In this document: positions 1,381 to 2,568 of the stretch, in pieces
Numbering within the stretch: the stretch's first letter is position 1
Layout of the letters: every line of letters begins with the position of its first letter
NCBI RefSeq assembly: GCF_003334335.1
Contig: NZ_QOWQ01000071.1
DNA from: Escherichia coli
GTDB lineage: Bacteria; Pseudomonadota; Gammaproteobacteria; Enterobacterales; Enterobacteriaceae
Length of the DNA: 7,669 bases
Strand: one strand, 5' to 3'
Translations under genes and position numbers: made by a program
Notes under the pieces: generated by a model
Databases searched by the model: none
The model's input: only the letters and a program-made list of their open reading frames with translations
Told to the model about the DNA's origin: nothing

Positions 1381-2568
1381 CCTTTTCTGGCGTATTCGTC
1401 ATTCCATTCGTATCCCCGGTACCGGATGTTTATATCGTACAGTGCCGGTGCTGGCATGCTTTCCTGCAGGTCTGCACCGGTTTAACAAACAAAACTTAAC
1501 AGAGTCTGAAGGAGTAGTATTCCGTGCAAATAACCGAAGCGTTACTTTCAGAGCCGGGAGATATCTGGCGTTTTGTTCAGCAGGCGGTGGACCACTGGCC
1601 GCGTCTGCTGGCAGTCCACTTCACGCGTCATTCGACCAGAGTAAATATTGATGATTACTAGATTCGTGTATTTTATCAGGCATTTTACTTGCGAATAAAT
1701 CCCCTTGCTATCCAGCGAAACCACACAGGTAGCTATTACCATATGTGGTAATACACTAGTTACAGGAAAAATATGCAAGTTCCGCAATACGTTGTGTGTT
1801 GCTCCTTAGCCAGGATCTTTTCTTCCATGCGAGATATGACAACAATTTTGAGGAAGGATGTTCGTAACTGGTAGAGTTACTACAACAAGCATGGGAGGCT
1901 CTGACTCTGACAGACATTGTACTGTGGAATGTTGTTACAGGTTGGGGCGGCAACCGTGCCAGGAGACCATGAGCCGTTCACGGCATTAAAGGCCACACTT
2001 CAGTCGTTTACATTCCCTATGGTGGCAGGCATCTTCCATTAAGGCGTCAGAGCGTTACCAACGTTATGTTGTCATGGCTCATCTTTCATAGTCGATGCTT
2101 ATCTGGTGGCTGAAACTAGCCGCAGATAAAGAGTGTGAAGTTGATACCATGGAGTGGAGTGACGTGCAGGCAGGAGATTCGCTCTATGCAGGGTTGTGAG
2201 ATGAATTCAAACCGGCTGGCAGCGCCAGTGATATTCGAAGATTCGTCCGGTTGTTACCCAGTATGCATTAAAAACCCAGACATTATGGACAATATAACGG
2301 CTTCTACAACAAGGAAGTGCCTGTTTACCATCCGGGTGTAATGACTCACCTTTGTGGGCTTTTGCCCGTCGCGCTCTTAACGTTGAAGACATTCTCTGCC
2401 TGCCGATTCAGGACTGCGACAAAAGCCATATCTGGCTACTGGTCAAGGATGACCAGCGTCTGGAGTAGGTGATAAGCCAAATAGATAAGCTGGAATATGT
2501 GGTGAAAGTGCAACGTAATCAGTCCAATCCGACGATGTTTAACAAGATTGTGGTGTTTTTTCAGTAAG

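Follow-up and report, generated by a model that had tools for sequence, protein, structure and literature searches.

The gene-less stretch beside deoQ in the Escherichia coli deoK island is very probably junction DNA made of gene relics

Introduction

The window analysed here, a 7.7-kb stretch of Escherichia coli DNA (7,669 nucleotides (nt) at its full length), is the E. coli deoK island (deoQKPX; deoxyribose use), corresponding to the island of pathogenic E. coli found in the pathogenicity island (PAI) of AL862 and also in 55989, CFT073 and NCTC86. The deoK operon is described in reviews as PAI-borne and horizontally acquired (PMC7545054, PMC5382810, PMC6455142). Positions 1381-2568 of the window, between a garD remnant and deoQ, very probably represent non-functional junction DNA within this mobile island, a patchwork of gene relics from three joins, with breakpoints at ~1375-1381, 1592-1601 and 2326/2327. 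The relics are a YagK/YfjJ-like pseudogene (1524-2042) and a 5′-truncated ilvN pseudogene (2327-2567). An earlier note on this DNA had proposed decayed genes, an island junction or an unannotated non-coding RNA as possible readings and the first two of these hold jointly. The scar is ordinary, and RefSeq already annotates the ilvN pseudogene and a 45-amino-acid (aa) open reading frame (ORF); what is added here is the anatomy of the three junctions, the full-length dead YagK-like gene, the ilvN stub and the 284 nt between them.

As that note had claimed, 1381-2568 contains no intact gene, nor did any mis-framed one come to light. The longest ORF essentially inside it encodes 92 aa (1373..1651, plus strand), with a 243-aa minus-strand ORF at 726..1457 representing read-through of the garD remnant that overlaps the stretch by 77 nt. 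A gene-less 1.2 kb is unusual against bacterial gene density but not improbable against random sequence. The composition is intermediate, with a GC content of 0.42-0.50 over 1351-2550 compared to 0.55-0.59 in the garD remnant and 0.37-0.46 in deoK and deoP. The names garD remnant and deoQ given to the two neighbours agree with RefSeq, in which they are a UxaA-family/garD pseudogene (207-1374) and a DeoR-family regulator (2569-3351). At the identical locus of strain DA33137 RefSeq has the order agaR, UxaA/garD pseudogene, 45-aa hypothetical protein, ilvN pseudogene, deoQ, deoK, deoP and deoX, with the last four labelled as DeoR-family regulator, ribokinase, permease and epimerase. Many E. coli chromosomes match the stretch at 100% identity. 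Of 5426 complete genomes, 5007 match some part of it, but only 1023 contain 80% or more of its length. It travels only with the deoK island and not with the core genome, and as such is not ordinary conserved intergenic DNA.

The captured deoQKPX segment and its edges

The part of the stretch adjoining deoQ is an ilvN pseudogene (2327..2567, plus strand) corresponding to nt 50-291 of the 291-nt gene, with 91% nucleotide identity to E. coli ilvN and ~87% protein identity after frame correction (tblastn E 1e-36). The product of ilvN is the small ACT-domain regulatory subunit of acetohydroxyacid synthase I, but the window copy is truncated, frameshifted and without ilvB. It lacks the first 49 nt (16 codons, with the start codon, of the 96-codon gene) and has lost 1 nt from the T-run at 2360-2363, and a CAG codon has become an in-frame TAG at 2466-2468. 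RefSeq labels it as an acetolactate synthase small subunit pseudogene at 2341-2567.

The left limit of this homology was found at 2327 by blastn against E. coli and against 39 of 41 loci from other species. A profile comprising the 3′ 600 nt of ilvB together with ilvN (42 sequences), run using nhmmer --max with all filters off, matched 2327-2566 only (E 5e-65). A remnant of ilvB upstream of the stub was rejected, the profile match ending at 2327 and tblastn with IlvB being empty. Of the two ORF-like remnants placed by the earlier note at 1524-1661 and 2298-2567, both are true gene remnants, but the ilvN homology runs from 2327 and not from 2298. At the right limit, a profile of the deoX 3′ end and uhpA (21 loci) matched 6547-6985 and nothing beyond, such that homology to the native locus ceases ~39 nt past the deoX stop (6947-6985); a uhpA remnant after deoX was rejected, none being found by tblastn or with the deoX-uhpA profile. 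The limits at 2327 and ~6985 therefore define a captured segment of ~4.66 kb (2327..6985, plus strand), homologous by blastn and nhmmer to native ilvBN-deoQKPX-uhpA DNA and comprising the ilvN stub, deoQ, deoK, deoP, deoX and ~39 nt. The join at 2326/2327 is an illegitimate junction.

Native synteny was sampled in 52 loci with DeoQ relatives, one genome per species. An intact ilvB-ilvN pair lies beside deoQ in 46 of the 52, with ilvN convergent and a gap of no more than ~20 nt in most, while uhpA lies beyond deoX in about half of the native deoQ loci. The taxa with this synteny include Salmonella enterica subsp. arizonae and diarizonae, several Citrobacter, Raoultella, Klebsiella indica, Pseudocitrobacter, Trabulsiella, Phytobacter, Kosakonia and Leclercia. 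The window has the same deoQ (minus strand) and deoK deoP deoX (plus strand) as the native loci of Salmonella and other Enterobacteriaceae, with the ilvN fragment in the place of native ilvN. As in the 46 native loci, deoQ (2569..3351, minus strand; RefSeq) is convergent with the stub, with 1 nt between them. The native loci differ in that ilvN is intact and uhpA follows deoX, whereas in the window ilvN is cut at nt 50, uhpA is missing, and island backbone and insertion sequences (IS) flank the segment. The widespread occurrence of ilvB-ilvN / deoQ-deoKPX / uhpA on chromosomes therefore identifies the stub as a hitchhiked edge of the donor locus. No mention of an ilvN stub next to deoQ was found in the literature searched on the deoK island.

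Two Campylobacter phage records, MG065686.1 (A18a) and MG065691.1 (A11a), contain 242 nt that are 90.9% identical to the stub, as E. coli ilvN is. The presence of E. coli DNA in these unannotated records suggests contamination or misassembly. A phage origin of the stretch was rejected, its sole phage matches being these two records with E. coli-like ilvN.

A dead YagK/YfjJ-like gene and the crossover within it

The left half of the stretch is occupied by the remains of a second gene, the beginning of which is the 45-codon ORF (1524..1661, plus strand) annotated by RefSeq as hypothetical protein WP_001411495.1. Strain N1 has this garD remnant too, and after it an intact 170-aa homologue whose start coincides with that of the 45-codon ORF. 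Using tblastn, the N1 protein matched 1524-1733 (aa 1-70) and, in another frame, 1739-1903 (aa 73-127), with a combined E of 1e-30. A 189-aa relative, P0036, found among 1.84 billion representative proteins, was aligned through its aa 21-188 to 1524-2036 (E 1e-23), and the ORF at 1917-2042 matched the C-terminus of P0036 (156-187; blastp E 2e-4). On the strength of these tblastn matches to intact relatives, the feature is a full-length, dead pseudogene (1524..2042, plus strand) that no longer holds an intact reading frame, with three premature stops (1659, 1757 and 1865) and with frameshifts at two places (near 1735 and near 1905-1915); the stop at 2040-2042 is the native one. The stop that closes the 45-codon ORF, TAG at 1659-1661, is common to the deoK-linked copies of F11 and ECAMP047.

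The family to which this gene belongs is small, with 59 representative clusters at E<=0.001. The Pfam family PF11726 (YagK/YfjJ C-terminal domain) was matched by three of 20 aligned relatives at E<=0.001 (best 6e-10) and by eight of 20 at E<=0.1, and cluster members carry the UniRef name Inovirus Gp2 family protein. The N1 170-aa protein itself gave no Pfam match even at E<=10, no NCBIfam match and no significant PHROG match, and BLASTP detected no similarity between it and the canonical YagK/YfjJ proteins nearby. The YagK/YfjJ family (PF11726, formerly Inovirus Gp2) is known from CP4-6/CP4-57-type integrative islands and the intact 170-aa homologue likewise lies in PAI backbone beside YagK/YfjJ-domain genes; the window copy, unlike this homologue, is dead. 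The gene at 1524-2042 is treated here as a probable distant YagK/YfjJ-like gene of the island backbone. RefSeq names the N1 homologue (WP_001167426.1; N1 locus 5144-5656) a peptidoglycan recognition protein family protein. This name looks wrong, no support for it being seen here, and a distant YagK/YfjJ relationship is apparently the better fit.

Four-way alignment of the window, N1 and the deoK-linked copies of F11 and ECAMP047 revealed a change of affinity within the 45-codon ORF. Up to 1592 the window has the N1 base at each of the seven informative sites, while from 1601 through 1718 it has the deoK-linked base at every such site. Identity to N1 is 93% over 1381-1634, whereas the flank at 1381-1523 is only 60-65% identical to the flanks in F11 and ECAMP047. 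The N1-type sites to the left and deoK-linked sites to the right of 1592-1601 therefore show that recombination between paralogous YagK-like genes joined an agaR-garD′ module to the deoK module, and the informative sites place a homologous crossover at 1592..1601 in the lineage of the window. The annotated 45-aa protein is accordingly a recombinant stub with a chimeric N-terminus.

To the left of the crossover lies the 5′ flank of the YagK/YfjJ-like gene in its N1-type allele (1375..1523, plus strand), and its junction with the garD remnant at ~1375-1381 is also present in N1. The garD (UxaA-family) pseudogene (207..1374, minus strand), annotated by RefSeq at the identical locus, is N-terminally truncated with frameshifts and internal stops. 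Both agaR (which ends at 143) and the garD remnant are ~91-92% identical to the resident E. coli genes. In resident chromosomes, agaR and garD are separated by the prlF-yhaV toxin-antitoxin pair, which is absent from the module in the window. The agaR-garD′ DNA (1-1374) is, like the ilvN stub, a hitchhiked piece of chromosome, the second in the window, and has diverged to the same degree. The full left module was found in only ~504 genomes.

The spacer between the two pseudogenes

Between the two pseudogenes lie 284 nt (2043..2326) that were searched at both the nucleotide and the protein level. They showed no ilvB or ilvN homology using nhmmer --max and no tblastx match to the compared loci, and the only protein matches among 5.8 billion proteins were short E. 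coli ORFs of this same locus. Two candidate identities were rejected. The segment is not the sequence downstream of the N1 gene (an ECs1377-family gene), since the alignment score equalled that of shuffles and tblastx was empty. A second YagK-like N-terminus was set aside as well, the shared DIRRFV motif (7 residues, E 4) being taken as a chance match.

One block within the spacer does have a counterpart elsewhere. Four IncK2/Z-type E. coli plasmids carry an unannotated spacer to which approximately 165 nt (~2125-2254 plus 2255-2290) are 74% identical (E 2e-9 to 1e-11). This spacer has trbC on one side and a DEAD/DEAH helicase gene, itself preceded by a DNA methyltransferase gene, on the other. 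In the plasmids the two parts of the block are separated by a 159-nt insert. A coding signal in the island-versus-plasmid block was rejected, mismatches by codon phase being 12/13/21 and not significant, and no helicase or TrbC remnants were found in the window. The plasmid spacer is 460 nt long (plasmid locus L059, 3909-4368; also L062 and L063); its insert contains a 12-bp inverted repeat (GTGCGTTTCCGG...CCGGAAACGCAC), and the spacer also carries a terminator-like hairpin, GGGCCGC-GTCT-GCGGCCC.

Tests for function and variation among strains

No sign of function was found in 1381-2568, which on this evidence is probably non-functional. The alternative that the stretch, or its best-retained part (~2100-2568), is a small regulatory RNA or a cis-acting site of the deoK module, such as a deoQ 3′ untranslated region, a terminator or an antisense RNA, is judged highly improbable. 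It would be consistent with the presence of 2043-2326 alongside deoQ (1595 genomes compared to 1607 with deoQ, of 5426), with the persistence of the ~165-nt block (2125-2290) in two unrelated mobile contexts, the island and the IncK2/Z spacer, and with a small hairpin, CTGGC-AGC-GCCAG, that can be read in both the island and the plasmid versions. However, with Rfam 15 no match was obtained in 1381-2568 at E<=1 in a scan of the whole window or at E<=10 for the stretch alone, chance-level snoRNA and STnc420 matches falling far below gathering scores. Folding of 2100-2330 gave minimum free energy z-scores against shuffles of -0.36 and +0.39 for the two strands, as expected of shuffled sequence. 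No promoter-like site was found in 1381-2568, and the lone terminator-like site lies in the dead ORF, neither count exceeding the shuffle expectation. Conservation among island lineages also fails to single out this DNA, 1635-2326 being 94-98% identical to F11, ECAMP047 and A20 compared to 96% for deoQ, 94-95% for the deoQ-deoK intergenic region and 92% for the ilvN stub. Likewise, some strains tolerate an IS66 element at 2294 or replacement of the DNA left of 2099, and the two diverged versions provide no support from covariation. That the block at ~2125-2290 in particular might be a functional non-coding element of mobile DNA, whether a small RNA or a cis-acting site, is regarded as equally improbable. 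The non-coding RNA reading of the earlier note thus found no backing. The validated small RNAs of the AL862 island were also rejected as candidates, as they lie near afa-8 and int and not in the stretch.

Even less probable is a real small protein gene, be it the 45-codon ORF (1524-1661), a 68-codon ORF (2135-2341) or a fragment of IlvN with the ACT domain. RefSeq calls the 45-aa ORF, its exact sequence occurs on more than 1000 contigs and it is open in F11 too, but it represents the first 45 codons of a 170-189-aa family, with homologous out-of-frame sequence continuing to the native stop, and in the window it is a recombinant chimera. It has no NCBIfam match, and the Pfam and PHROG scans, which used the intact 170-aa homologue, gave nothing significant. 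For the 68-aa ORF, the 5.8 billion proteins yielded nothing but fragments of this locus, and its plasmid counterpart has stops, while the ilvN stub has lost its first 16 codons and start codon and carries a frameshift and a TAG.

The disabling lesions are common to three island lineages that differ by 4-8%, and the decay therefore predates the divergence of these lineages and the spread of the island to ~30% of E. coli genomes. The left part of the stretch is variable among strains. In A20 an IS21-family element is inserted at 1944-1952, and in ETEC1747 an IS3 transposase remnant beside an IS66 element lies left of ~1695. The IS66 element at 2294 was seen in one contig and the unrelated DNA left of 2099 in another. 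Unrelated DNA is also found left of 1524 in F11 (YagK/YfjJ genes) and 2 HS-C (the acuR side), and in ECAMP047 a CPBP-protease region lies left of ~1390. Mosaic PAI junctions likewise have truncated core-gene fragments at module edges (the ilvN and garD remnants and aldolase fragments), varying neighbours and IS elements; the detail added by the window is only the level of identity, ~91%, of both hitchhiked fragments to the resident E. coli copies.

Assembly of the junction and origin of the deoQKPX module

The edges described above show that a 4.66-kb piece, from ilvN nt 50 to ~39 nt past deoX, was cut from a chromosomal ilvB-ilvN/deoQ-deoKPX/uhpA locus and joined illegitimately at 2326/2327 to island backbone downstream of the YagK/YfjJ-like gene. 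The backbone gene (1524-2042) and the ilvN stub (2327-2567) then decayed before the island spread. The informative sites show that the crossover at 1592-1601, in which the dead copy recombined with an N1-type paralogue of the YagK-like gene, put agaR-garD′ at the left. The DNA may persist as a neutral neighbour of a selected operon, the part nearest deoQ being nearly always kept and the left part freely cut by IS elements and deletions.

The donor of the piece can be approached through the stub and through DeoQ. Neighbour-joining of ilvN nt 50-291 placed the three remnants from the island as the sister group of E. coli ilvN. The stub is 91% identical to E. coli ilvN, 83% to Pseudocitrobacter, 80-82% to Citrobacter and 76-78% to Salmonella, the Salmonella loci in the comparison being those of S. 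enterica subsp. arizonae and diarizonae, without subsp. enterica. Among the 5.8 billion proteins, relatives of DeoQ at 92-100% identity are from E. coli only, the next being at 82-86% (a Logan cluster at 85%, Salmonella enterica at 84% and Citrobacter at 83%). The agaR-garD′ fragment, at ~91-92% to its resident counterparts, shows a similar distance from E. coli. We infer that the donor of the ilvN stub and deoQKPX would have been an Escherichia-like chromosome rather than Salmonella. The more specific proposal, that not Salmonella but an Escherichia lineage, either unsampled or extinct, supplied the deoK module from its native ilvN-uhpA locus, stands at about an even chance.

Several points weigh against the account given here. 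The searches assigned the 284 nt at 2043-2326 to no gene or element, and calling them backbone DNA is a label rather than a demonstration. The retention of 2043-2326 and the ilvN stub in ~99% of deoQ-bearing genomes could mean function, although proximity to a selected operon would be enough to explain the retention of 2043-2326. As to the donor, the sequence behind the argument is 242 nt of a pseudogene under neutral decay, the E. coli-like look of the stub could stem from gene conversion by the resident ilvN, and the comparison covers Salmonella arizonae and diarizonae but lacks S. enterica subsp. enterica. In addition, a passage in a secondary source has the operon thought to come from Salmonella enterica (PMC5382810, citing Bernier-Febreau 2004).

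A direct transfer of the ilvN stub and deoQKPX from Salmonella enterica, with the E. coli-like character of the stub acquired secondarily through gene conversion by the resident ilvN, is unlikely. The ilvN-deoQ-deoKPX-uhpA arrangement is present in Salmonella, but this synteny extends across many genera and is not specific to Salmonella. The stub is at 76-78% to arizonae and diarizonae against 91% to E. coli, with the differences distributed along the whole 242 nt, and DeoQ at 84% is no closer to Salmonella than to Citrobacter and Pseudocitrobacter (83-86%).

Repeats and other features of the window

The palindrome TATTACCA-TATG-TGGTAATA described in the earlier note is present exactly at 1734..1753, an 8-bp inverted repeat with a 4-nt spacer inside the YagK/YfjJ-like pseudogene and hence within decayed coding sequence. 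Among 2000 first-order Markov resamples of the 1188 nt of the stretch, ~15% held one or more perfect 8-bp inverted repeats with a spacer of 0-10 nt. In F11 and ECAMP047 the right arm reads TCGTAATA/TCGTAATG, a G to C change with loss of pairing. The palindrome is most likely due to chance, and a role as a protein-binding site was rejected, the repeat being at chance level and not conserved. A 21-nt direct repeat, 86% identical (ACCATTATGAGGAAGGTTGTT / ACAATTTTGAGGAAGGATGTT), links the garD′ junction (1357-1377) and the interior of the pseudogene (1842-1862) and is probably also due to chance.

Within the captured operon, a perfect 8-bp inverted repeat, AATGTTAT-AAAA-ATAACATT, lies at 3370-3389, in the intergenic region between the divergent deoQ and deoK. 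The window as a whole contains only two other distinct repeats of this kind, and this one is a candidate DeoQ operator. Across 2569-6946 the divergence among island lineages (three loci compared) is uneven, at ~4% in deoQ, ~5-6% in its promoter region, 0.3-1.4% in deoK and 1-1.4% in deoP, which suggests that recombination within the operon may have occurred between island lineages.

At the right-hand end of the window a strong Rfam match to isrC (RF01387) was found at 7317-7439 on the plus strand (150 bits, E 1.5e-37, full length), overlapping the start of an IS3-family orfA-like ORF (from 7321). The frame of this ORF is apparently broken near 7590 (7590-7669). The sequence after ~7590 (TGTAGATTCAATCTGTCAATGCAACACC...) appears to resemble a terminal inverted repeat of the IS30 family and may mark a nested IS insertion.

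Implications

With the ilvN stub, the left edge of the captured DNA can be set exactly at 2327, and the right edge lies near 6985. The breakpoint and the lesions are the same in every island copy inspected, which points to a single capture event behind the operon found in ~30% of complete E. coli genomes. The grouping of the stub with E. coli ilvN, together with the lack of a close DeoQ relative outside E. coli, casts modest doubt on a Salmonella origin of the deoK operon.

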